Shown here: positions 4,404 through 58,440 of the stretch, in pieces
Layout of the letters: each line of letters begins with the position of its first letter
Numbering within the stretch: the first letter of the stretch is position 1
Translations under genes and position numbers: made by a program
DNA from: Terriglobia bacterium
GTDB taxonomy: Bacteria; Acidobacteriota; Terriglobia; JAIQFV01
DNA: 64,000 bases
Reading direction: 5' to 3'
Assembly: GCA_020073085.1 (NCBI GenBank)
Contig: JAIQFV010000002.1
Location: 376,875-440,874, forward strand
Notes under the pieces: model-generated
The model's input: only the letters and a program-made list of their open reading frames with translations
Database searches by the model: none
Told to the model about the DNA's origin: nothing

Positions 4404-4645
4404 GGTGTCAGGTATCAGGTGCCGGGTGTCAGAATGGAGCTATCAGCGATCAGCGCTCAGCTTTCAGCGGTCAGCTATCAGCTTGCAAGTTCAAAGCAGC
4501 CCTTGCAATGTCCAGCGGTTGGCTCCGGGACTGGAAGCCCGCTCTTCTAAAATATACCTCCCTAGTTTGTACAGGGGGCAGATGGCTGAGATCTGGTAGT
4601 GATCGCTGATAGCTGACGGCTGACCGCTGAAAGCTGACCGCTGCC
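4404..4645. repeat. bipartite intergenic element: inverted low-complexity arms (CAGCTATCAGC flavour) around a unique core
   Basis: Left arm about 4434-4482 (tatcagcgatcagcgctcagctttcagcggtcagctatcagc) pairs with right arm about 4597-4643 (gtagtgatcgctgatagctgacggctgaccgctgaaagctgaccgctg); fills the whole gap between convergent stops at 4403 and 4646. Confidence 0.75.
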
Positions 4646-12517: not shown

Positions 12518-12752
12518 AAGAAGTTGTCAGTTCTCGGTTCTCAGTTGTCGGTAAGAGCTTTCAGCTATCAGCCACCAGCTTTTGGCGGGAGGCTTACTGG
12601 GGGTTGTAAGCATGGTTCGAAGCAGCAATTGACCGCTGATTGGAAATCAGGTCCTTGAACAAGAAGGCGATCCTCTGGTTCGGTTGCTGATAGCTGACCG
12701 CTGATAGCCATTACTGAGAACTGACAACTGAGAACTGACAACTTACTTCAGG
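12518..12752. repeat. bipartite intergenic element (CAGTTGTCAG flavour), best-preserved example
   Basis: Left arm 12518-12579 (aagttgtcagttctcggttctcagttgtcggtaagagctttcagctatcagcc) is the near reverse complement of right arm 12684-12752; unique core about 12580-12683. Confidence 0.8.
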
Positions 12753-13437: not shown

Positions 13438-14196
13438 ATGGCTCTATTTTGCTCAAAGTGCGGGACCGCTATCGTCACGGGATCAAAATTCTGTCAGGCG
13501 TGCGGGGCGCCGGCGCCTCAACCGATGCAAGCTGCGCCGCCTCCCCCAGCCCAACCACAGCAGCAATGGGCCGCACCTCCGCCGGTTCCACCCCCTCAGC
13601 CACAACAGCAGTGGGCTCCACCGCCATATGCAGCCGGTCAGCCCGGACCTCCGACGAAGAAGACCGGAGGAGCCCTCAAAGTTATCTTGATCGTTCTTGG
13701 GGTCATCGTCATCCTCATCGTGGTGGCCGTCGTAGGCGTTAGCCTGTTTATCAAGAAGACCGTGCTCGATAACGTCTCGGTAAAAGAGGGGCCGGGAGGG
13801 AGAGCCGAGGTCTCCATCAACACCCCCAAGGGACAGATCAAACTTAACTCGAAGGCGGACATTTCTGAAGAAAAGCTGGGTGTCCCGATTTATCCGGGCG
13901 CCAGGGCCGAGGAAGGGTCAGGCTCTTTCAGCATCTCCGGGGGGGAAGGGGAGAAGGGCGGCACTTTGGGCGGCGCCACCTTCACCACAACCGACAGCAT
14001 CGACAAGGTGGTCGAGTTTTACAAGAGCCGGCTGGGTAACAAGGTCAGTGCCTTTGATTCCGCTTCCGGAGGAAAACACACGGTCGTCTTGAATGTGGCG
14101 ATCCAGAACGGCTGGAAGATGATCACGATCGAGGATGAAGGGACAGGCGTGACCAAGATTGCGGTCGCGAGCCTTTCCGGGAATTCGCCGCAGTAA
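13438..14196 (+). CDS. zinc-ribbon domain membrane protein with Pro/Gln-rich linker
   Basis: N-terminal CxxC-N12-CxxC zinc ribbon (FCSKCG...CQACG), PPPPAQPQQQW low-complexity linker, one TM helix, C-terminal globular domain; AAGGAGG ribosome-binding site. Confidence 0.55.
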   Translation: MALFCSKCGTAIVTGSKFCQACGAPAPQPMQAAPPPPAQPQQQWAAPPPVPPPQPQQQWAPPPYAAGQPGPPTKKTGGALKVILIVLGVIVILIVVAVVGVSLFIKKTVLDNVSVKEGPGGRAEVSINTPKGQIKLNSKADISEEKLGVPIYPGARAEEGSGSFSISGGEGEKGGTLGGATFTTTDSIDKVVEFYKSRLGNKVSAFDSASGGKHTVVLNVAIQNGWKMITIEDEGTGVTKIAVASLSGNSPQ

Positions 14197-14286: not shown

Positions 14287-15003
14287 ATGGCCGCTTTTTG
14301 CCCGAATTGTGGAAACACGATTGATGAAGGAGCGAGGTTTTGCCAGAAGTGTGGAGCCGCATCGCCGCAGCCTGCCGCAGCGGCCCCTCCGCCCCCACCG
14401 CCACCTCCTGCTCCGGAACCACAGTGGACTCCCCAACCCCCTCCTCCACCCCAAGGACAATGGACGCCACCTCCCTCGGGGTTTCCTGCGGCGCCTGCGG
14501 GCGCCCCTTCAAATAAGATGAAAGCAGCACTGTTGGGAGGGCTGGTGGGGGGCCTTTTGTCAGGTCTTCCGTTTATTAAGGCCGGCAACTGTTGCTTCTG
14601 CCTTTGGGTCATGCTCGGCGGGGTCATCGCTGTCTATATATACAGCAAACAGCTTTATGCAATGACGGGGGGCACGGCGGCTCTCCTGGGTATGCAGAGC
14701 GGAATGGTCTCGGCAGTGGTCTCCACGATTATTTCCATCCCTTTTCAGCTCATCATGACCCGTGTGGCGGGGGGATTCCAACGGGAGATGATCGAGAAGA
14801 TGATGGAACAAAATCCCGACTTCCCACCTCAGTTTCGGGACTTTATGCTCAGGATGTTTTCTCCGGAATTTGCTGTCGGATTGATTATTTTCGGTTTCAT
14901 CATCTCGCTGGTTGTTTTCTCACTCTTTGGCGCCCTTGGCGGGATCATTGGGAGGTCGCTATTCAAATCCCATATGGTCGGCGATGTGAAGAGACCGAGT
15001 TGA
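14287..15003 (+). CDS. zinc-ribbon domain multi-pass membrane protein (paralogue of the preceding gene)
   Basis: Same N-terminal zinc ribbon (FCPNCG...CQKCG) and Pro-rich linker, then several TM segments; AAGGGAG ribosome-binding site. Confidence 0.55.
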   Translation: MAAFCPNCGNTIDEGARFCQKCGAASPQPAAAAPPPPPPPPAPEPQWTPQPPPPPQGQWTPPPSGFPAAPAGAPSNKMKAALLGGLVGGLLSGLPFIKAGNCCFCLWVMLGGVIAVYIYSKQLYAMTGGTAALLGMQSGMVSAVVSTIISIPFQLIMTRVAGGFQREMIEKMMEQNPDFPPQFRDFMLRMFSPEFAVGLIIFGFIISLVVFSLFGALGGIIGRSLFKSHMVGDVKRPS

Positions 15004-16904: not shown

Positions 16905-17105
16905 AGTAGAGGTGATAGGTAATAGGTTATAGGAAGAAACAGGAAACCTGACGTTGGCTGTTTGAGGAATGAAGCGAGCGTCGTTGTCTGTTGCGGAGAG
17001 TTCAACTCCCGTACCGAGCTTCTAAGACCTCTCGCCGACCTCTGTCTTTGTAGTTCATTGGGTGAAACCTAACACCAAACACCTAATACCTATCACCTCT
17101 TTCCT
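16905..17105. repeat. bipartite intergenic element (GGTGATAGG / AATAGG flavour)
   Basis: Left arm gaggtgataggtaataggttataggaagaaacaggaaacc pairs with right arm ggtgaaacctaacaccaaacacctaatacctatcacctc. Confidence 0.7.
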
Positions 17106-18106: not shown

Positions 18107-18973
18107 CTATTCCAACCGCCTGCCCGTCAGGCGTTCAATGCGCTTGGCGATGGGAGGGTGGGTCGAAAAGAGATTTCCGATAGCGCTCATCAGGCCCCCG
18201 CCGGTGAAGGGTTGAATGATAAACAAGTGGGCCGTCGAGGGGGAAGCCACCATCGGAATCCGCTTCGAGTAGGCATCCAGCTTTTGAAGCGCGCTCGCCA
18301 GTCCCTCAGGGTTGTGCGTCATTTCAGCGCCACTGGCATCGGCCTGGTATTCGCGAGACCGTGAAATCGCCAGTTGGATCAAGAGGGCGGCAATCGGCGC
18401 TACGATAATCATCAACAGACCGGAAAGCACGCCGCCACCCCGTTCGTTGTCGCTGCTGCGTCCTCCAAAACCCCCAAACAACTCAGCCCAGTAAGCCATG
18501 CGTGCAATCATCGTTAACGCGCCGGCAATGGTCGCTGCCACGGCGCTGATCAGGATGTCGCGGTTCTTCACATGGCTGAGTTCATGGGCCAGCACACCCT
18601 CAAGTTCCCGCTCGTCCAGGATTTTCAAAATACCCTGGGTGACGGCAACTGAGGCATGGTCGGGATTCCGTCCCGTGGCAAAGGCGTTGGGTGAATCCGT
18701 CGGAATCATATAAATCTTCGGCATCGGCAGTTGATTGTTGGCCGCGAGCCGTTCGCAGATGCGATAGACCATGGGCGCTTCTTCGCGTGAAATGGGAACG
18801 GCGCCATTCATCGCGAGGGCGATCTTGTCGGACCAGAAATAACTTGCGAAATTCATCACAACGGCGAGTCCGAGGCCCAGCATCAAGCCGTTTTGACCGC
18901 CAACGGCCTCACCTACAAACAACAGCAAGCCTGTCAGCAAGCCCAACAGTAAAACCGTTTTCAGTCCATTCAT
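18107..18973 (-). CDS. htpX: zinc metalloprotease HtpX (M48 family)
   Basis: HELSH zinc-binding motif, several TM helices, conserved C-terminal region; ATG 18973 (MNGLKT). Confidence 0.85.
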
Positions 18974-19083
18974 AGTCGTGCGTGCCTTTCGTTCCTGCAA
19001 TGGATTGGATTTGTGCAGGTGGCCAGAGGTTGTCTCCAAGATGTTAATAGTAAGATTCAAAAGCGAATTGTCAATGAAGCGAA

Positions 19084-19270
19084 GGTATCAGGTGTCGGGC
19101 AAGCTGTCAGCTTTCAGCTCTCAGCCATCAGCAATCAGCTTCGGACTTATTGAATGGGTGTATCCAAAGATGAATAGGCTTCTAATTTCATGAAATCCCG
19201 TCTCATTAAGCAGCAGCTCCTCTTCCTTGTGTTATCTGACAGCTGATAGCTGATCGCTGAAAGCTGGTCT
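19084..19270. repeat. bipartite intergenic element (CAGCTATCAGC flavour)
   Basis: Left arm ggtatcaggtgtcgggcaagctgtcagctttcagctctcagccatcagcaatcagc pairs with right arm gttatctgacagctgatagctgatcgctgaaagctggtc. Confidence 0.7.
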
Positions 19271-20608
19271 TCAAAAACAATCCATAAATGCGCTGACTGA
19301 AAACACGGCCTTTCCAATTCCGGGCTCACCATAGCCGGGAGGAGGCGTCAGCTTGTACTTACGCAAAATGCGGTGGTAGGTTTCCAGCAAGCGCACGTGG
19401 TACTGAAGCGGTGCGCCCTGCGGGTTTGTTTTTCCCAGCACGCTCAACGGCTCCGGACACCACGTGGTGAACCGCGGTTTGATCCCCTGAGACATGAAAA
19501 ACTCCAGTCCCTCGGCCGTCGATGCCATGGCGTCTTCAACCTCAGTGAAGCCGTGAGGCTGCGCCATTTCGATGCCGGCAACGAAGTTCGGGATCACGTG
19601 GTCGGGACCAAACACCCGGGCGGCTTCCACAATCCGGCGGTGCCACTCCTCGCGTCCCACGTACCGGCCCTTTCCCGCACAGATGATTCCGAACAACCGG
19701 TCATCCCAGATTTCATAATTGGGATGATAAATTTGCACGCCGGCATCTTTGAAACGTTTCACGTCGTCCAGGGGCAGCGCCTGCACCACCAATTTAGAGA
19801 TCCAGCGGCGCGGAAATCTTTTCTCAATGGCGAGGGGATAGCGTTCGTAAAAGTCCGCCTCCGTTTGGCCACGGAGCTTGGAGGTGATCGATCCCCCCGT
19901 CACCGTGTAAGCCCTTGCTTCCTGGTCCGTCTCGGCGATGATCTCCAGCGCTTCAAGAATCTCCTCGGGGGTTTTAACAATCTGATACGGGCGCCCGGCG
20001 GATATCTGTTGGCGATAATTTTCGTTGATGTCGCAAAACTGGCACTCTTCTTCAAATCCGAAATACTGGCACTTCCGATAGACCGTCAAATAGAGCAGAT
20101 AACCCCACTCGATATTGGGTGCTACCTCGTCGAGCGGCCGTCCGCTGGAGAGAGCGCGGTCGTAATACCGTGGCCGGGGCCGGTATTGAACCTCACAGAG
20201 AACCTCCCGGCGCGAATCCGCCATTCCATCCTCGCGCTGTCCGGCTTGAATAGTAAGGGCAAGCTTGCCGTTCGTATCAATCTCGACGCGATAGGGGGAG
20301 TGTGGATTGAGCCGCACCGACACAATCGTCTTCCGAAATCCTCTGGGTCCTTCTGTCAGGCAAATCTCTTCGGGGGCGCTCAGATCCTCACGCCGCTCGC
20401 CCATCTCTTTGATGGGAATCATGTCAAATGAAAAAATGAAGTAGGACTTCGGCTGCATCCCCGCCGCCACGCGCAGGGCATCGTCGCTGAACGACACCCC
20501 CCCGCGCAGAAGGTCCTCTTTGACGATGGCCTCCGGCGGGATCGTGGGATGGTCAGCAATAAGCTGTTCGATGAGATCTATCCTGGGGGTCTCGACTGAC
20601 TTCGTCAT
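19271..20608 (-). CDS. uncharacterised Fe-S / radical-SAM-like protein with a non-canonical cysteine cluster
   Basis: CQYFGFEEECQFC (C-x8-C-x2-C) followed by a TGGS glycine-rich segment; not the canonical CxxxCxxC; family not recognised. Confidence 0.3.
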   Translation of the reverse strand: MTKSVETPRIDLIEQLIADHPTIPPEAIVKEDLLRGGVSFSDDALRVAAGMQPKSYFIFSFDMIPIKEMGERREDLSAPEEICLTEGPRGFRKTIVSVRLNPHSPYRVEIDTNGKLALTIQAGQREDGMADSRREVLCEVQYRPRPRYYDRALSSGRPLDEVAPNIEWGYLLYLTVYRKCQYFGFEEECQFCDINENYRQQISAGRPYQIVKTPEEILEALEIIAETDQEARAYTVTGGSITSKLRGQTEADFYERYPLAIEKRFPRRWISKLVVQALPLDDVKRFKDAGVQIYHPNYEIWDDRLFGIICAGKGRYVGREEWHRRIVEAARVFGPDHVIPNFVAGIEMAQPHGFTEVEDAMASTAEGLEFFMSQGIKPRFTTWCPEPLSVLGKTNPQGAPLQYHVRLLETYHRILRKYKLTPPPGYGEPGIGKAVFSVSAFMDCF

Positions 20609-20679
20609 GCAACCATGGTCCCTTCTCTGCTTCCTGGGATGCGGAGAGAACGGCAACTCGCTAGCATATCATTGGGATC

Positions 20680-20899
20680 AGGGGGAAGGGAATAGATGAT
20701 AGGGAATAGGGAATAGGTGGAGAAGCTGGCAGCAAATAGGCGATTAGGGTTAGATAATAAGTGCCATGACCTCGTGCACGAATTCTAGTGAGACGTGGTG
20801 CAGCAACGGTCAAACCATTTGAACTCCATACCTAAAACCCATTCTCACTCACCCGTCACCTACCTGCTATTTCCTATCACCTATCATCTATTCCCTCAC
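20680..20899. repeat. bipartite intergenic element (GGGAATAGG flavour)
   Basis: Left arm gggaagggaatagatgatagggaatagggaataggtg pairs with right arm cacctacctgctatttcctatcacctatcatctattccctc. Confidence 0.75.
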
Positions 20900-23574
20900 A
20901 CCGCTCGAGCTTTTTTCGACGAGACGTCCTTCTCCGACTGGGGTTGAAACAGCATGACACCCCTTTCGAGGTCGGCATCGACCTGCAGCATGTCTCCCGT
21001 ATGGACAATCCCTTCCAGCAGCTGCATCGACAACGGATTGACGATCAGGCGCTGGATGGCCCGTTTCATGGGACGGGCCCCATACTGCGGATCAAATCCC
21101 TCGCGCAACAGCAGCTCGCGGGCAGGGTCGGTGAGGGAGATCCCGATGTTGCGTTCCGTCAGCATCCGCTCGAGGTGGAAGATCTGGAGGTCGATGATCT
21201 TCTGGATTTCGTTCCGCCCCAGCGAATGGAAAATAATGATGTCATCCACGCGATTCAGGAACTCGGGCTTGAAGTTTTCCTGCATGATCTGCATCACCTG
21301 TTCCCTCAGGCGCGACTCGATGTCGCCTGCGGAGACTCCATGTTTCCGGTCCTCTTTGTGCGAGCTGCTGAACCGCGCCTGAAATTCCTGGATCATCGAG
21401 GAGGCGAGGTTCGAGGTCATGATCAGGACGGTGTTTCTGAAATCGATCGTCCGCCCTTTGCCGTCAGTTAGTCGGCCATCATCGAGGATTTGCAGCAGCA
21501 CGTTGAACACGTCGCTGTGCGCTTTCTCAATTTCATCAAACAAAACGACGGAGTACGGGCGGCGCTTGATCGCTTCCGTCAGCTGCCCCCCTTCCTCATA
21601 TCCCACGTAGCCGGGCGGCGCCCCGATCATGCGGGACACGGAATGTTTCTCCATGTACTCGCTCATGTCGAGGCGCACCATGGCATGTTCGTCGTCGAAG
21701 AGGAATTCCGCCAGGGCGCGGGCCAACTCCGTTTTTCCCACGCCGGTCGGCCCCAGAAAAATGAAGGACCCGATGGGACGCTTGCGGTCCTGCAGCCCCG
21801 CCCGACTCCGCCGGATGGAATTGGAAACCGCCACCAGGGCTTCTTCCTGTCCGATGACCCGGGCCCGGAGGCGATCCTCCATCTTGATCAGCTTGGCCAC
21901 CTCTCCTTCGAGCATCTTGGAGACCGGGATGCCGGTCCAGCGCGAGACGACCGCCGCAATATCCTCTTCGTCCACTTCCTCCTTGAGGAAACGCCCATTC
22001 TCAGACCGGGCCAGGAGTTCGGCGTTCTGTTTCTCCAGCTCTCTTTGAGCGCCCACCAGCGCGCCGTAGCGGATTTCTGCCACCCGCTGGTAATTCCCCT
22101 CGCGTTCCGCCTTCTGCTCTTCCAGCCTGAGGCCCTCGATCTGTTCTTTCAGCTGCCGAATCCGGGCGATGTGCTCCTTCTCGGACTGCCAGCGCAGCTT
22201 CATCTGGCTGGACTTTTCCCGGAGTTCGCTGAGCGAGAGCTCGATCTTCTGCAGCCGCTCTCTGGAGGCCGGATCGTCCTCACGCTTCAACGCCTGCTTT
22301 TCGATTTCGAGCTGCATGATATCGCGTTCGAGCTGATCGATCTCCGTCGGCATCGAATCAATCTGAATCCGCAGGGAGGATGCGGCTTCGTCGACCAGAT
22401 CGATGGCCTTGTCCGGCAGAAAACGGTCGCTGATATAGCGGTTCGACAGGGTAGCCGCCGCGATGATGGCGCTGTCCTTGATTTTCACGCCATGATGAAC
22501 CTCGTAACGCTCCTTCAGTCCCCGCAGAATCGAGATCGTATCCTCGACTGTGGGCTCTCCGATATAGACCTGCTGAAAACGCCGTTCGAGGGCGGCGTCT
22601 TTCTCAATGTATTTCTTGTATTCGTTAAGGGTGGTGGCGCCAATGCAGTGCAATTCGCCGCGTGCCAGGGCCGGCTTCAACATGTTGGAGGCATCGATGG
22701 CGCCCTCGGCGGCGCCCGCGCCGACCACGGTGTGGAGTTCGTCGATGAAGAGAATCACCTGGCCCTCGGCTTCATTGATCTCCTTCAAGACGGCCTTGAG
22801 CCGGTCTTCGAACTCGCCCCGGTACTTGGCGCCTGCCACGAGCGCCCCCATGTCGAGGGCCACGATCCGCTTGTTCTTGATCGTCTCCGGGACATCTCCC
22901 GCCACAATGCGGCGGGCGAGTCCCTCCACGATGGCGGTTTTTCCGACGCCCGGCTCGCCGATCAAAACGGGATTGTTTTTCGTGCGGCGCGACAGGACCT
23001 GGACCACGCGCCGGATCTCATCATCGCGGCCGATGACGGGGTCCAGCTTTCCCTTGCGTGCCAGTTCGGTCAGATCGCGGGCGTACCGCTCCAGGGCCTG
23101 GTATTTGTCCTCGGGATTCTGATCGGTCACCCGCTGTGAACCACGGATGGTTTGAAGCACCTTGAGAATCGCATCCCGGGTGACGCCGTGCCGCTGGAGG
23201 ATCTTCTGGGCGGCGTCGTTTTTCTGGTCAGCAATGGCCAGCAGCAAGTGTTCTGTGGAAACATACTCGTCCTTGAACTGATCGGCTTCCTTGAATGCCT
23301 TTTCAAACACCTGGTTGAGCGTGGGGGCGATGAATTGCTCGAAGCCGCTCGTGACCTTGGGCAGGCGCGACAGTTCGGTCTCCACCTCGCCCAGCACAGC
23401 GTTGGTCGAGACCCCGAGCTTCTGCAGCGCCGGCACCACCACGCCTTCGGGCTGCAGCAGAAGCGACATCAGCAGATGGATTGGCTCCAACTGCTGATGG
23501 CCTTGCTTGGAGGCCACGTCCTGCGCCGCCTGAACGGCTTCCTGACCTTTCAATGTGAATTTATCGAATCGCAT
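20896..23574 (-). CDS. clpB: ATP-dependent chaperone ClpB
   Basis: Two AAA+ modules with Walker A motifs ([16 protein letters not shown]), coiled-coil middle domain, Clp N-terminal domain. Confidence 0.95.
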
Positions 23575-23709
23575 AAGTAAATAGAGTCAACGAATAGTAT
23601 AGGAGAAAACTTGTGGCTTTCCCCTCTCCTTTTCATGCAAGATCAACTCGGCTCCCCGGAGGCGGGTGTCCCCGCCCGAGGGTCAATCCCGGGCCTGCTG
23701 GCCGGAGGA

Positions 23710-24159
23710 TCAGCTGATGTTCACCTTGATTTGTTTTGACTTGGTCTCCACCTTCTTCGGCAAAGTGATTTTCAAGACCCCATCTTTGTACTCGGCACTG
23801 ATTTTGTCTTGGTCGACCGAAGTGGGGAGAGTGAAGGATCGCGAAAAGGCCCCGTAGGCCCGCTCCACGCGATGGTAGTTTTCCTCCTGGGTTTCCTTTT
23901 CGAACTTGCGCTCCCCTTTCAGGGTCAGGGTGTTGTTCACCAGCCGGATGTCAAGGTCCTTCTCCTTCATTTCGGGCAGTTCCGCCTTCACCACGATGTC
24001 GTGGTCGGTTTCGTAAATGTCCACCGCCGGCGACCAGGCCCCCGAATCCATGGATTCATTCCCGGTCCGCAGCCGGCCAAACCGCTCATCCAACAATCGA
24101 TTCATACGGTCCTGCAACGTAATCAGGTCGCGAAACGGTTCACACCGGACGATTGCCAT
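23710..24159 (-). CDS. small heat-shock protein, Hsp20/alpha-crystallin family
   Basis: Alpha-crystallin domain (AVDIYETDHDIVVKAELPEM...GVLKITLPK); AAGGGAGG ribosome-binding site. Confidence 0.9.
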   Translation of the reverse strand: MAIVRCEPFRDLITLQDRMNRLLDERFGRLRTGNESMDSGAWSPAVDIYETDHDIVVKAELPEMKEKDLDIRLVNNTLTLKGERKFEKETQEENYHRVERAYGAFSRSFTLPTSVDQDKISAEYKDGVLKITLPKKVETKSKQIKVNIS

Positions 24160-24199
24160 GATGACCTCCCTTGTCGCCCAATACCTGCCGTGCAATCCG

Positions 24200-24228
24200 A
24201 TACTAAGATTCGGGTTTTGTGCTGTCAA
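24200..24228 (-). promoter_or_regulatory. sigma70-like promoter for the Hsp20 gene (TTGACA-N17-TAGTAT)
   Basis: On the minus strand, TTGACA at 24223-24228 and TAGTAT at 24200-24205 with a 17 nt spacer, about 40 nt upstream of the start codon. Confidence 0.4.
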
Positions 24229-24236
24229 GGGAAGCG

Positions 24237-24440
24237 AAGAGTTGTCAGTTCTCAGTTGTCGGTTCTCAGAATGCAGTAGCTAGTTCTAAGCCCTCATTTA
24301 CTGATCGGCGGGGAGAGTGAGGCACAATATCGCCAAGGTCAAGGGCTCATCGGTTACAACCAAATCTCTTGTCCTGGCCTTTGCTGACAACTGGGAACTG
24401 ACAACTGAGAACTGCTTTCCGGCAACTGAGGACTGACAAC
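24237..24440. repeat. bipartite intergenic element (CAGTTGTCAG flavour)
   Basis: Left arm gttgtcagttctcagttgtcggttctcag pairs with right arm ctgacaactgggaactgacaactgagaactg...gactgacaac; lies between the rlmI-like stop and the Hsp20 promoter. Confidence 0.75.
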
Positions 24441-43489: not shown

Positions 43490-43675
43490 AGTTGCCAGTT
43501 GCCAGTTTTCAGTTGTCAGTGGGAAGGTGCAAGAGTCGGCGGCCGGAAGACGGGAACCGGAAGCCAGAAGTCAGAGGTCAGAAACAAAAGGCGTGGAATT
43601 GTAGACTTTGAACTTTGAACCTGGAACTTTGAACCGGGGTTTCAGGACTTTGAACTTGAAACTTTGAACTGTTCT
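43490..43675. repeat. low-complexity intergenic block (GTTGCCAGTT, GGAAG/CCAGAAG and CTTTGAAC motif runs)
   Basis: Three different simple-motif runs fill the gap between convergent stops; arms are not clearly complementary. Confidence 0.6.
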
Positions 43676-52510: not shown

Positions 52511-52735
52511 CAGGTAATAGGGGATAGGTTTTAGGTGATAGGGAACAGGTTCCAGGCAATAGGGAAACAAGACGAGCGATCAATCCTCGGGACCAATAAC
52601 TCAGCCCGAACGATCAGTCGACGGCACATCTCTTGCATCGTTCCCCCAAGCCACCCCTGCCACCGATCATCAATTACCTACTACCTATTCCCTACTACCT
52701 ACCACCTATTTCCTATCACCTACTACCCATCCCTA
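52511..52735. repeat. bipartite intergenic element (GGTAATAGG / AATAGG flavour) between sdhA and sdhC
   Basis: Left arm ggtaataggggataggttttaggtgatagggaacagg pairs with right arm cctactacctattccctactacctaccacctatttcctatcacc. Confidence 0.75.
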
Positions 52736-54448
52736 ATACTTCCTCTCCACCGGTTTCCAGTTGGTAATCGTCACGGGCTTGTATTCCAGCCGCGGCTTAC
52801 CACCGGTGCAATACACCATGGAATGTGCCAGGAACTTTTCATCATCACGCTTCGAGAAATCCGTCCGGGAATGGGCCCCGCGGGATTCCTGGCGTGCCTG
52901 ACCGGCGAAGAGCAGCACCTCCGCCAACTCGAGCATGTTTTCAGTTTCCAATGCCTGGATGAGGTTGGTGTTGTAGATGCGGGTCTTGTCCTGGATGGAA
53001 ATCTTTCGAAAGCGTTGCCTCAGATCGGCAATCTTGTCCAGGCCTTCCTTCATGGAGTCGCCGGTGCGGTAAACCCCGGCGTGCTTGTCCATCAGTGTCC
53101 GAAGTTCACGGCGGATGAGGGCCGGGTTCTCCGTTCCACTTTGTTTGAGCAGACCATCAAAAACGCGGCTCTCTTCTTCCCGGACTTTGGCCTCCGGCAT
53201 CGCACTCAGCGTGGTGCCTTTGGTCAGGAACTTTGATATTTCACCTCCGGTAATGCCGCCCCACACAAGGCATTCGGCCGTGGAATTGCATCCCAGACGG
53301 TTGGCGCCGTGCATGGAGTGGCACGCCACCTCCCCGGCCGCCCAGATGTTCTCCACCTTGGTCTGGCCGTTGATGTCGGCCTCGATCCCTCCCATGGCAT
53401 AGTGGGCCACGGGCCGGATCGGGATGGGCTGAGTGATGGGGTCGATTCCCAGAAATTTCATACACACTTCACGGATCAGCGGGAGGCGGTGGTTGATGCG
53501 GTCGGCGCCAAGGTGGGTCATATCGAGGTTAATATAATCGAGCCCCTCGGGTCCCGGAAAACCGCGTCCCTCGAGAATTTCCGTCATCTCCGATCGCGAC
53601 ACGATATCGCGGGGCGCCAGTTCCATCATCTTGGGCGCATACTTTTCCATAAACCGCTCACCCTTGTTGTTGCGCAGGTAGCCGCCTTCCCCGCGACACC
53701 CCTCCGTCATCAGGATGCCCGAGGGCACCAATCCGGTCGGGTGAAACTGCAGAAACTCCGGATCTTCCAGGGGCAGGCCGGCGCGGAAGGCGATGGCCTG
53801 TCCGTCACCCGTGACGGTTTGGGAATAGGTCGTGAACCCATAGAGGTTCCCCAGGCCTCCGGAAGCGAACAGGAGCGCCTTTCCGCGCAAAACGTAGAAC
53901 TCACCGGTCGGGGCATCGAAAAGCGTGAGGCCGGCAAACCGACCGCCCTCGAGGAGCATCGCCGTGACGAAACACTCGTCGTAGCGCTTGAAGTTGTTGT
54001 ACTTGACCAGGGTGTCATAGAGGGCCTGCATTTCCATGAAGCCGGTCTTGTCGGCGGCCATGCAAGCGCGCGGGAAAGAATGCCCGCCAAACGGACGCTG
54101 CATGATCCGCCCGTCGTCGCGGCGTGACCAGGGGACCCCCCAATGCTCCAGGCGCCGGATCTCATCCGGCGAAGTCCTGACAAACCGATCCACCGTGTCC
54201 TGGTCCGCCAGGAAATCGGCGCCTTTGACCGTGTCCCAGGCGTGCAGCTCGAGGCTGTCTCCTTCCTCGGGGCGCATCATCGCAGCGGTGCCCCCTTCGG
54301 CACACACCGAATGCGAGCGCATGATCTGGACCTTCGACACGATTCCGATGTCGGCTTTGCCCTGCGTTCGAATGCAGATTTCCACGGCGGCGCGCAGTCC
54401 GGCCAGCCCGGTGCCCAGGATTAGTACATCATGAGTTATTTGTTGCAT
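52733..54448 (-). CDS. sdhA: succinate dehydrogenase / fumarate reductase flavoprotein subunit
   Basis: FAD-binding GxGxxG ([14 protein letters not shown]), covalent-FAD His region ([10 protein letters not shown]), conserved catalytic blocks. Confidence 0.95.
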
Positions 54449-54815: not shown

Positions 54816-55250
54816 CACCGATGGGATGTTCAAAATTCAGACTGAAGGTGGCGGGTTTGGAATTTGTTTATTGGGATTTGGTTCTTATTTGGGTTTTGGA
54901 GTTTGGAATTTGGATTTTCCGCCAATGGGATGTTCAAAATTCAGACTGAAGGTGGCGGGTTTGGAATTTGCTTATTGGGATTTGGTTCTTATTTGGATTT
55001 TGGAGTTTGGAATTTGGATTTTCCGCCGATGGGATGTTCAAAGTTTGGACTGAAGGTGGCGGGTTTGGAATTTGCTTGCTGGAATTTGGATTTTGGAGTT
55101 TGGAATTTGGATTTTCCGCCGATGGGATGTTCAAAATTCAGACTGAAGGTGGCGGGTTTGGAATTTGCTTGCTGGAATTTGGATTTTGGAGTTTGGAATT
55201 TGGATTTTCCGCCGATGGGATGTTCAAAATTCAGACTGAAGGTGGCGGGT
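54816..55250. repeat. tandem array: five copies of a 36 bp core at 93-104 bp spacing
   Basis: Core GATGGGATGTTCAAAATTCAGACTGAAGGTGGCGGG recurs at about 54820, 54924, 55028, 55121 and 55214; inter-core sequence is low-complexity TTTGGAATTTGG...GGATTTTCC and nearly identical between units. Confidence 0.85.
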
Positions 55251-58310: not shown

Positions 58311-58325
58311 ACCCAGTATTTTCCT

Positions 58326-58440
58326 GGATTGGAAATTGGAAAGGTCTGACCCGAGAATTGGGATTGGAAATTGGAAAGGTCTGACCCGAGAATTCTTGCT
58401 GGATTGGAAATTGGAAAGGTCTGACCCGAGAATTCTTGTT
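58326..58440. repeat. 3 x about 40 bp tandem repeat (GGATTGGAAATTGGAAAGGTCTGACCCGAGAATTCTTGCT)
   Basis: Three near-identical units at about 58326, 58361 and 58401. Confidence 0.85.

Follow-up and report, generated by a model that had tools for sequence, protein, structure and literature searches.

The gene called X here, located in a 64-kb stretch of acidobacterial DNA (the window), encodes a variant radical SAM protein that most likely acts in early menaquinone head-group synthesis, because its orthologues are embedded in menaquinone operons of the futalosine pathway. The linkage was observed for the orthologues, and the role is extended from them to the organism of the window. Taken alone, X would be one more radical SAM protein with no assigned role, from a family cataloged by NCBI and RadicalSAM.org. 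The added value comes from the finding that its orthologues are linked to mqnA and mqnC across phyla, which yields a specific and cheaply testable menaquinone hypothesis for abundant soil phyla (Acidobacteriota, Actinomycetota, Chloroflexota, Planctomycetota, and Gemmatimonadota). What is new here is the identity of the orthologues across phyla, with a gap to the other subfamilies, and the repeated neighborhood of futalosine genes. Our literature search found no paper tying the X family to menaquinone, nor one tying the futalosine pathway to a new radical SAM enzyme.

The gene and its start region are as follows:

19271..20608, minus strand: variant radical SAM gene X, complete, 445 amino acids, ATG start (list of open reading frames and translation)
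19271-19273, minus strand: stop codon of X
20619..20625, minus strand: GAAGGGA, likely ribosome-binding site, 10 nt upstream of the ATG (Shine-Dalgarno-like, by sequence inspection)

A TTG codon at 20656 is an alternative start that would give a protein of 461 amino acids. The ATG at 20608 was favored because of the GAAGGGA box and because the homologues begin at the position of this ATG in the N-terminal alignment. The first-pass annotation had listed a 445-aa protein at 19271-20608 without stating the strand; the open reading frame holds, on the minus strand. Searches found at least 2748 homologues of X, the best of which is 91% identical and has 445 amino acids.

The same annotation had proposed a divergent radical SAM enzyme with atypical cysteine spacing, and both profile searches and structure prediction supported this proposal. 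The NCBIfam model NF045502 'variant_rSAM' (product name 'radical SAM protein') matched residues 29-417 with 166.7 bits (cut-off 125) over profile positions 7-357 of 357, and X is a member of this family with no family-level difference. The match to Pfam PF04055 was marginal (29.8 bits, cut-off 29.5, residues 189-328). The AF2 model (pLDDT 86.4) shows the (beta/alpha) TIM-like barrel of the radical SAM superfamily, with the TVTGGS, YHPNYE, and NFVAGIE motifs on its strands. The profile searches gave no confident match to a family outside radical SAM, and a PDB sequence search with X returned noise only (E above 1). Homology thus supports X as a radical SAM enzyme of a cataloged family with no assigned function. 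That X is another kind of Fe-S or zinc protein with a mere resemblance to radical SAM enzymes is very improbable; its non-canonical spacing, a Pfam score just 0.3 bits over the threshold, and a cluster loop modeled less confidently (residues 181-210, pLDDT 63-77) are the points in favor of such a protein.

The domains and motifs of the protein map to these positions:

20099..20608, minus strand: N-terminal domain, residues 1-170, of no known fold; contains three helices and a beta sheet of five strands besides the invariant K-[AS]-YFIFSFD segment
20033..20071, minus strand: C180-x8-C189-x2-C192 (CQYFGFEEECQFC), predicted ligands of the SAM-binding [4Fe-4S] cluster
19889..19906, minus strand: TVTGGS, residues 235-240, strand beta2; occupies the place of the 'GGE' motif that binds the amino and carboxylate groups of SAM
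19712..19729, minus strand: YHPNYE, residues 294-299, strand beta4
19667..19681, minus strand: C310-A-G-K313 with downstream G318, conserved C-[AP]-G-K loop
19568..19588, minus strand: NFVAGIE, residues 341-347, GxIxGxxE-like motif, late barrel strand

The translation of X around the cysteine motif reads RKCQYFGFEEECQFCDINENYRQQ (C180-x8-C189-x2-C192), and the aromatic F191 directly precedes the last cysteine. In the model, strand 171-177 immediately precedes the three cysteines. The cysteine columns of the alignment are 100% conserved in 35 of 35 close homologues, and the three residues are invariant in all 69 full-length superfamily representatives, down to 28% identity. Nearly all of these 69 also share the x8 spacing; the three exceptions have x6 or x7. 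Judged by this conservation, the C-x8-C-x2-C motif that had been read from the DNA is no chance pattern, and radical SAM homology predicts C180, C189, and C192 as the cluster ligands. The spacing differs from the canonical CX3CX2C. CX8CX2C is a variant accepted within the radical SAM superfamily and is cataloged at RadicalSAM.org for Megaclusters 4-6-1, -3, -5, and -6, clades that share the cysteine spacing of X (PMC9477430); the atypical spacing is, therefore, not new to the field. A literature search on CX8CX2C or variant radical SAM proteins found no functional study.

A glycine-rich TGGS segment had also been described as following the cysteine motif. TVTGGS is present (...AYTVTGGSITS...), 42 residues past the last cysteine rather than directly after it. 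It forms a strand in the model (residues 233-238), G238 and G239 are conserved in 91% and 99% of the superfamily, and likeness to BioB, HydE, and LipA suggests a role in SAM binding. The YHPNYE segment (model strand 293-297) is invariant among close homologues, and 94% of the superfamily retain E299; we take the segment to resemble the YNHNLD/FNHNLE ribose-binding motif of BioB and LipA. In NFVAGIE (model strand 341-344), for which we likewise infer a role, G345 and E347 are 99% and 97% conserved superfamily-wide. The C-[AP]-G-K loop is a candidate contact for the substrate or the SAM carboxylate: position 311 is proline in 96% of the superfamily (alanine in X), and conservation reaches 96% for G312, 97% for K313, 99% for G318, and 75% for C310.

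The only cysteines invariant superfamily-wide are the three of the motif. The Pfam search found no SPASM/twitch domain in X, and no conserved auxiliary cysteine was present (C310 75%, C384 19%). A further conserved cysteine set such as the auxiliary cluster ligands of BioB or LipA was likewise absent, and the bioB and lipA equivalog models were not among the matches. Homology and fold show X as a single-cluster radical SAM enzyme. BioB, LipA/LIAS, HydE, HydG, PylB, and ThiH, all full-barrel radical SAM enzymes, are 10-15% identical to X, which differs from them in lacking auxiliary-cluster cysteines, in the length of its cluster loop, and in its N-terminal domain. The sole other NCBIfam radical SAM model matching X was that of the MSMEG_0568 family of the Nit1C nitrilase cluster (TIGR04043; residues 128-346). 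Kinship with this family was rejected, since the score of 38.1 bits is far below the cut-off (303.7) and the loci examined contain no nitrilase-cluster genes near X. The 'noncanonical radical SAM' protein ArsL was also discarded as a lead; it has CxxxCxxC and an RCCLKC tail.

A scan of 185,579 species genomes found X in at least 519. Orthologues from different phyla are 55-66% identical, while the next subfamilies reach at most 42%, and the 79 alignable members, including the protein of the window, share at least 55-58% mutual identity. By these values X and its orthologues are one tight orthologous group. Paralogous CX8CX2C radical SAM proteins have the same architecture (N-terminal domain plus motif) at 28-42% identity and belong to separate subfamilies. 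Unlike the X orthologues, they are found outside mqn operons in a catabolic-looking context, sometimes as tandem pairs. The operons of distant paralogues include GntR, UbiD, PrpD, CoA ligases, and ABC or aromatic-acid-type transporters, and because of the UbiD, CoA ligase, and transporter genes this context fits a superfamily acting on aromatic or unsaturated carboxylic acids like the product of MqnA. The longer relatives, as possible fusions, were uninformative: P0131 is a GntR-FCD fusion, the C-terminal extensions of P0199, P0253, P0267, and P0268 had no Pfam match, and P0011 is internally duplicated, probably as an assembly artefact.

All-against-all clustering of the neighbors in 83 genome-derived loci revealed no universal neighbor, the maximum being 14 loci, and the menaquinone signal emerged only through Pfam enrichment of the immediate neighbors. 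With 80 metagenome loci included (163 loci in all), MqnC adjoins X in 73, and MqnA, the chorismate dehydratase, is found close by in 42. In the genome-derived loci, MqnC lies immediately downstream of X in 20 and MqnA is nearby in 13; the metagenome counts are 53 for adjacent MqnC and 29 for MqnA, together with polyprenyl synthase (13), UbiX (5), amidohydrolase (4), UbiD (3), and PNPOx (3). Where X is directly upstream of MqnC, the stop and start codons often overlap. The 14 CofH-like neighbors classified all scored best as MqnC (TIGR03699, 268-454 bits, six above the cut-off of 428), with MqnE scores of 174-316 bits where listed. Five VitK2_biosynth neighbors from four lineages all matched structures of MqnA chorismate dehydratase (E 1e-27 to 1e-38), not MqnD, and the amidohydrolase neighbors scored best against the aminofutalosine deaminase family NF006269 (190-200 bits).

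Several layouts were found: TetR-MqnA-X-(PNPOx)-MqnC-amidohydrolase, UbiD..UbiX-polyprenyl synthase-MqnA-X-MqnC, MqnA-X-amidohydrolase, and X-MqnA. In locus L031 the order is UbiD, Rieske/cytochrome b, UbiX, polyprenyl synthase, MqnA, X, and MqnC, with 4-bp overlaps between the last three. The mqn-embedded orthologues belong to Actinomycetota (Gaiellales and other Thermoleophilia), Chloroflexota (Ktedonobacterales), Acidobacteriota, and MAGs labeled Pseudomonadota. Gaiella occulta is flagged 'inconsistent' in Table S2 of Chobert et al. 2026, a label of ambiguous meaning.

A second CofH-family (MqnE-like) gene was absent from every X locus, genome-derived or metagenome. Canonical organisms have mqnEAC operons (PMC4746308), so X occupies the place of mqnE elsewhere. 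Since the operons hold enzymes of the preceding step (MqnA) and of later steps (a deaminase-like hydrolase and MqnC) but never the canonical MqnE, the most likely specific role for X is that of an alternative aminofutalosine synthase between MqnA and MqnC, an assignment that follows operon position and to which we give somewhat less than an even chance. The relation to MqnE proposed here is one of functional analogy only, suggested by operon position in the orthologues. Neither MqnE model (TIGR03700 or NF006276; PDB 6xi9) matches X at E up to 1, MqnE has CX3CX2C where X has CX8CX2C, and X carries an extra N-terminal domain of 170 amino acids and lacks the CofH_C domain (no PF19288 match).

In the reaction that we propose, the [4Fe-4S] cluster would be bound by C180, C189, and C192, which sit on an exceptionally long loop following barrel strand beta1, and TVTGGS, YHPNYE, and NFVAGIE would bind SAM. 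The reduced cluster is predicted to cleave SAM to the 5'-deoxyadenosyl radical. The substrate, 3-[(1-carboxyvinyl)oxy]benzoate, would take up this radical at its enol-pyruvyl double bond, and the adduct would rearrange and lose its carboxyl group to yield aminofutalosine. The 170-residue N-terminal domain, which includes the invariant KxYFIFSFD segment, probably covers the barrel as a cap and gives the substrate pocket its shape. Streptomyces species possess canonical MqnE, and X therefore cannot be a simple MqnE replacement everywhere. More broadly, the chances are about even that X is an unrecognized enzyme of the futalosine pathway, either an aminofutalosine synthase of another radical SAM clade or a radical nucleoside lyase producing dehypoxanthinyl futalosine. 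Such an enzyme would have a new N-terminal fold and would complete the menaquinone pathway in Gaiellales, Ktedonobacterales, and other soil lineages. If this is true, the futalosine pathway, an antibiotic target pathway, gains a new enzyme, quinone prediction from genomes improves, and the CX8CX2C clade acquires its first function and substrate, together with an account of what its long cluster loop and its new N-terminal domain do.

The gene order agrees equally well with a step directly preceding MqnC, because adjacency of X and MqnC is commoner than that of MqnA and X. As a radical SAM 'lyase', X would release the purine base of futalosine or aminofutalosine, leaving dehypoxanthinyl futalosine for MqnC to use as its substrate, and so replace MqnB or MTAN. 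This role is improbable, even if the position immediately upstream of MqnC is the tightest and commonest linkage and the same operons contain an aminofutalosine-deaminase-like gene, which would make futalosine, and no PNP_UDP_1-type MqnB. A radical SAM queuine lyase is on record (PDB 6p78), which we take to cleave an N-glycosidic bond and to be a precedent. Among the 33 futalosine-type genomes sampled in the portion of Table S1 of Chobert et al. 2026 (PMC13386864) that was available, MqnB and MtnN are both missing in 15 and MqnE in one, so the common gap in annotation is base removal and not MqnE, a point that weighs against the synthase role as well. Four X-carrying assemblies looked up in that portion are absent from it. 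However, a gene found in so few species genomes is far too rare to fill a gap in ~45% of those futalosine genomes. Furthermore, four loci from several lineages (L060, L065, L067, and L160) pair X with MqnA alone, with MqnC out of reach, the operons would remain without MqnE, and ordinary nucleosidases perform such hydrolysis, making radical chemistry needless.

X could instead catalyze another radical step linked to menaquinone or to a chorismate-derived aromatic acid. It might modify the head group or the side chain, or open a branch from the product of MqnA, perhaps together with a PNPOx-like flavoprotein. We consider this unlikely. PNPOx / Pyridox_ox_2 genes adjoin X in Streptomyces (L038 and L073) and in Chloroflexota-type operons (L043, L088, L091, and L096), and the GntR-regulated operons of the paralogues, with UbiD, PrpD, CoA ligases, and some tandem pairs, point in the same direction. 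Streptomyces retains X despite having the full canonical pathway. Several rare quinones have a biosynthesis described as unknown (PMC13386864). Against such a decorating step, the cross-phylum identity of 55-66% and the translational coupling amid core early-pathway genes argue for a core step, and no candidate product is known.

The window itself contains no homologue of MqnA, MqnC, or the deaminase, and X adjoins no mqn gene there; most X loci of Acidobacteriota, Planctomycetota, and Streptomyces also have no mqn neighbors. An Rfam search of the window returned nothing. X lies between clpB and htpX in the order hsp20-clpB-X-htpX. This context was set aside as a functional clue, being limited to the window and its 91%-identical relative (L001) among the 83 loci and missing from the other 81. 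A stand-alone radical SAM enzyme tied to stress genes and unrelated to menaquinone, for instance a macromolecule modifier, is quite unlikely in the window acidobacterium. All four genes share one strand, the arrangement is kept in L001, X is very highly conserved in sequence, and most Acidobacteriota loci have no conserved neighbor, a pattern typical of enzymes that modify RNA or protein. However, the heat-shock context recurs in a single close relative, and the intergenic gaps flanking X (about 210 and 290 nt), along with a promoter-like site belonging to htpX, suggest that the genes are transcribed as separate units. Moreover, X belongs to a tight orthologous group in which orthologues 58-61% identical to it are located inside mqn operons.

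The first-pass annotation had proposed an iron-sulfur protein with a C-x8-C-x2-C motif, perhaps a divergent radical SAM enzyme, at 19271-20608. The translation confirmed that the protein (hereafter X) is real: a minus-strand open reading frame carries C180-QYFGFEEE-C189-QF-C192. The TGGS segment said to follow the cysteines is also present, as TVTGGS (residues 235-240), at a distance of 42 residues from the motif. The gene and its neighbors are:

18107-19060, minus strand, HtpX-like M48 protease, downstream of X
19271..20608, minus strand, X, 445 amino acids, ATG start
20896-23574, minus strand, clpB, upstream of X
23710-24228, minus strand, hsp20, upstream of X, beyond clpB

The open reading frame listing includes an alternative TTG further upstream, at 20656, that would give 461 amino acids. 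The N-termini of the homologues align to the ATG position, which is preceded by a GAAGGGA box at a distance of 10 nt. Because all 35 close homologues and all 69 full-length representatives of the superfamily (X and its distant relatives, identity down to 28%) retain the three cysteines, the motif is, judging from the alignments, no chance arrangement. Nearly all of the 69 representatives keep the x8 spacing.

The "divergent radical SAM" reading was supported by NCBIfam NF045502 "variant_rSAM" (166.7 bits against a curated cut-off of 125, residues 29-417) and, marginally, by Pfam Radical_SAM (29.8 bits, threshold 29.5). The sole other radical SAM model detected, TIGR04043 (MSMEG_0568 family), scored 38 bits (cut-off 303.7); therefore, X lies outside that family. 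No sequence relatives were found among solved structures. AlphaFold2, run with an alignment of 35 sequences, gave a confident model (pLDDT 86.4, pTM 0.88), and X is of the "biotin/thiazole synthase-like" structural class. This class is Megacluster-4 of RadicalSAM.org, where CX8CX2C was reported for sub-clusters 4-6-1, -3, -5 and -6 (PMC9477430); the variant motif was already known to the field. Since C180, C189 and C192 are the only cysteines invariant across the superfamily (C310 occurs in 75% of its members, C384 in 19%), X is predicted to be a single-cluster enzyme, without a SPASM, twitch or BioB/LipA-type auxiliary cluster. Other near-universal positions are G238 and G239 in TVTGGS (the "GGE" equivalent), E299 in YHPNYE on beta4, the C-[AP]-G-K313 loop with G318, and G345 and E347 in NFVAGIE. 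YHPNYE appears to resemble the ribose-binding YNHNLD/FNHNLE of BioB and LipA. Homology and fold show that X has the radical SAM barrel, a single Cys3 site and equivalents of the SAM motifs. As it belongs to the radical SAM superfamily and to NF045502 but not to MqnE, the MSMEG_0568 family, or the SPASM/twitch and BioB/LipA-type groups, X represents a catalogued family without characterized function.

A word-indexed protein search returned more than 2748 matches, led by a Terriglobia MAG protein (91% identity), after which identities level off at about 63-67%. Among 50%-identity representatives, an exhaustive search recovered 707 clusters (E up to 1e-3). With one genome sampled per species, close relatives were counted in at least 519 species. 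The best 80 of these share 57-66% identity with X and come from Acidobacteriota, Planctomycetota, Actinomycetota (Streptomyces, Actinoplanes, Catenulispora, Gaiellales), Chloroflexota (Ktedonobacterales), Gemmatimonadota, Eiseniibacteriota and others. The 79 alignable members are mutually at least 55-58% identical, and the next subfamilies reach at most 42%. By these identities X and its closest relatives form one tight orthologous group, which probably has a common function.

Clustering of the neighbors revealed no universal partner gene. A Pfam scan of 144 immediate neighbors placed PF02621 (VitK2_biosynth) at the top, with CofH_C and Radical_SAM high.

Genes near X in 83 genome-derived and 80 metagenome loci (X homologue plus neighboring genes; metagenome counts are lower bounds because many contigs are just 2-5 kb)
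CofH-family radical SAM gene, adjoining X: 20/83; 53/80
VitK2_biosynth gene: 13/83; 29/80
Amidohydrolase: 4/83; 4/80
Polyprenyl synthase: seen in L031; 13/80
UbiX: seen in L031; 5/80
UbiD: seen in L031; 3/80
PNPOx-like gene: seen in L038, L043 and L073; 3/80

All 14 classified CofH-like neighbors were best matched by MqnC (TIGR03699, 268-454 bits, six over the cut-off of 428), with MqnE scores of 174-316 bits where listed. The five VitK2_biosynth neighbors tested, from four lineages, all matched structures of the chorismate dehydratase MqnA (SCO4506, 7ahr; E 1e-27 to 1e-38) and none matched MqnD. For the amidohydrolases the best match was NF006269, the aminofutalosine deaminase family, with scores of 190-200 bits, under its cut-off of 320. 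A second CofH-family gene, which would be the canonical MqnE, was absent at every one of the 83 genome-derived and 80 metagenome loci.

Gene orders around X
Ktedonobacterales-type loci: TetR-MqnA-X-(PNPOx)-MqnC-(small ORF)-amidohydrolase-AI-2E transporter
L031 and L130: UbiD, Rieske/cytochrome b, UbiX, polyprenyl synthase, MqnA, X, MqnC, with 4-bp overlaps between the last three
Gaiellales-type loci: X-MqnC; MqnA, polyprenyl synthase, UbiX and UbiD on the opposite strand
L065: MqnA-X-amidohydrolase
L067 (acidobacterial): Rieske-X-MqnA

These orders differ between phyla, which argues for selection on co-location and not inherited synteny. Most loci from Acidobacteriota, Planctomycetota and Streptomyces have X standing alone among unrelated neighbors.

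From the gene context, we hypothesized that X acts in early menaquinone synthesis by the futalosine pathway. Reductive cleavage of SAM would yield a 5′-deoxyadenosyl radical, and its addition to 3-[(1-carboxyvinyl)oxy]benzoate, at the enol-pyruvyl double bond, would give aminofutalosine, so that X would supply the MqnE step in mqn operons; canonical organisms have mqnEAC operons (PMC4746308). Because the operons with X hold the first enzyme, MqnA, a deaminase-like hydrolase that acts on the MqnE product, and the later radical SAM enzyme MqnC, but never MqnE, this assignment is the simplest reading and a serious candidate, to which we give somewhat less than an even chance. Confidence is held down because Streptomyces species possess canonical MqnE, yet some retain X. 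Chobert et al. 2026 (PMC13386864) list futalosine-type genomes in their Table S1; of the 33 consulted, 32 have MqnE, the exception being GCA_016700335.1, and 15 lack both MqnB and MtnN. The rows consulted do not include the four X-carrying assemblies identified. Gaiella occulta, with MK-7 measured, is flagged in that study as "inconsistent" with the genomic prediction. Since the usual gap in those genomes is thus base removal, X could instead be a radical lyase that acts on futalosine or aminofutalosine and feeds MqnC, and X-MqnC is its commonest adjacency. Radical SAM enzymes include a queuine lyase (PDB 6p78). Its chemistry acts on a glycosidic bond. However, X is far too rare to account for a gap this frequent, and in several lineages X is paired only with MqnA. 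The literature search found no paper tying the X clade to menaquinone and, to our knowledge, neither the mqnA/mqnC link nor the fold-less N-terminal domain of X is described in it. The link provides a concrete, testable prediction on menaquinone biosynthesis in major soil phyla.

In Streptomyces, X is preceded by a flavoprotein gene of the Pyridox_ox_2 type (L038 7271-7933, L073 7050-7931), and in Chloroflexota-type mqn operons it is accompanied by a PNPOx or Pyridox_ox_2-type one. Such genes were located at L043 1628-2095, L088 1859-2317, L091 9302-9757, L096 4344-4934 and L095 3913-5052, the last encoding a fusion of PNPOx and nitroreductase that lies some genes upstream of X and does not adjoin it. 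The flavoprotein may be a dedicated redox partner, and the two could possibly carry out another menaquinone-linked or aromatic-acid reaction jointly. Action of the superfamily on aromatic or unsaturated carboxylic acids fits the operons of distant CX8CX2C paralogues (28-42% identical), which contain UbiD, CoA ligases, PrpD and aromatic-acid-type transporters. Some paralogues occur as adjacent or nearby pairs (L083 4126-5433 and 5547-6854; L086 2007-3308 and 4296-5633; L084; L085) in GntR-regulated operons that also encode UbiD-family decarboxylases, MmgE/PrpD, CoA ligases, acyl-CoA dehydrogenase and ABC transporters, suggesting an uncharacterized anaerobic carboxylic- or aromatic-acid pathway.

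Homologues of MqnA, MqnC and the deaminase were not found within the whole 64-kb window. The hsp20-clpB-X-htpX order (18107-24228) is common only to L001, the locus of the 91% identical relative, and absent from 81 other loci; therefore, the stress-gene neighborhood was given little weight. Gaps of about 290 and 210 nt flank X, and htpX is preceded by a sigma-70-like site. Both gaps carry a repeat pair of a kind seen in many intergenic regions, in which inverted arms of about 31 nt, made up of about 4.4 tandem heptads each, lie 100-150 nt apart:

4438-4643; 12523-12743; 16910-17098; 19102-19266; 20687-20896; 24240-24414; 52512-52739; also 43490-43670 and 58324-58438, heptad-array pairs

The heptad varies by region (CAGCTNT, AGGGAAT, GTTCTCA, TACCTAC and others), and Rfam gave no match. 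The corresponding gaps of L001 keep the architecture with changed heptads, one arm being longer by four. A 93-nt unit repeated 3.8 times (54885-55250, 91% match), made of TTTGGAT/TGGAATT heptads, may be related.

Two adjacent paralogous proteins on the plus strand (13438-14196 and 14287-15003) begin with zinc-ribbon-like CxxC...CxxC segments (MALFCSKCG...FCQACG and MAAFCPNCG...FCQKCG) and go on to a long linker rich in Pro and Gln and to hydrophobic segments. In the X homologue P0011 (550 amino acids, JGI), an internal duplication of about 105 residues, with AEAEFYGRYAQAIEERFPGRW...MARPFGFE present twice, is most likely an assembly artefact.
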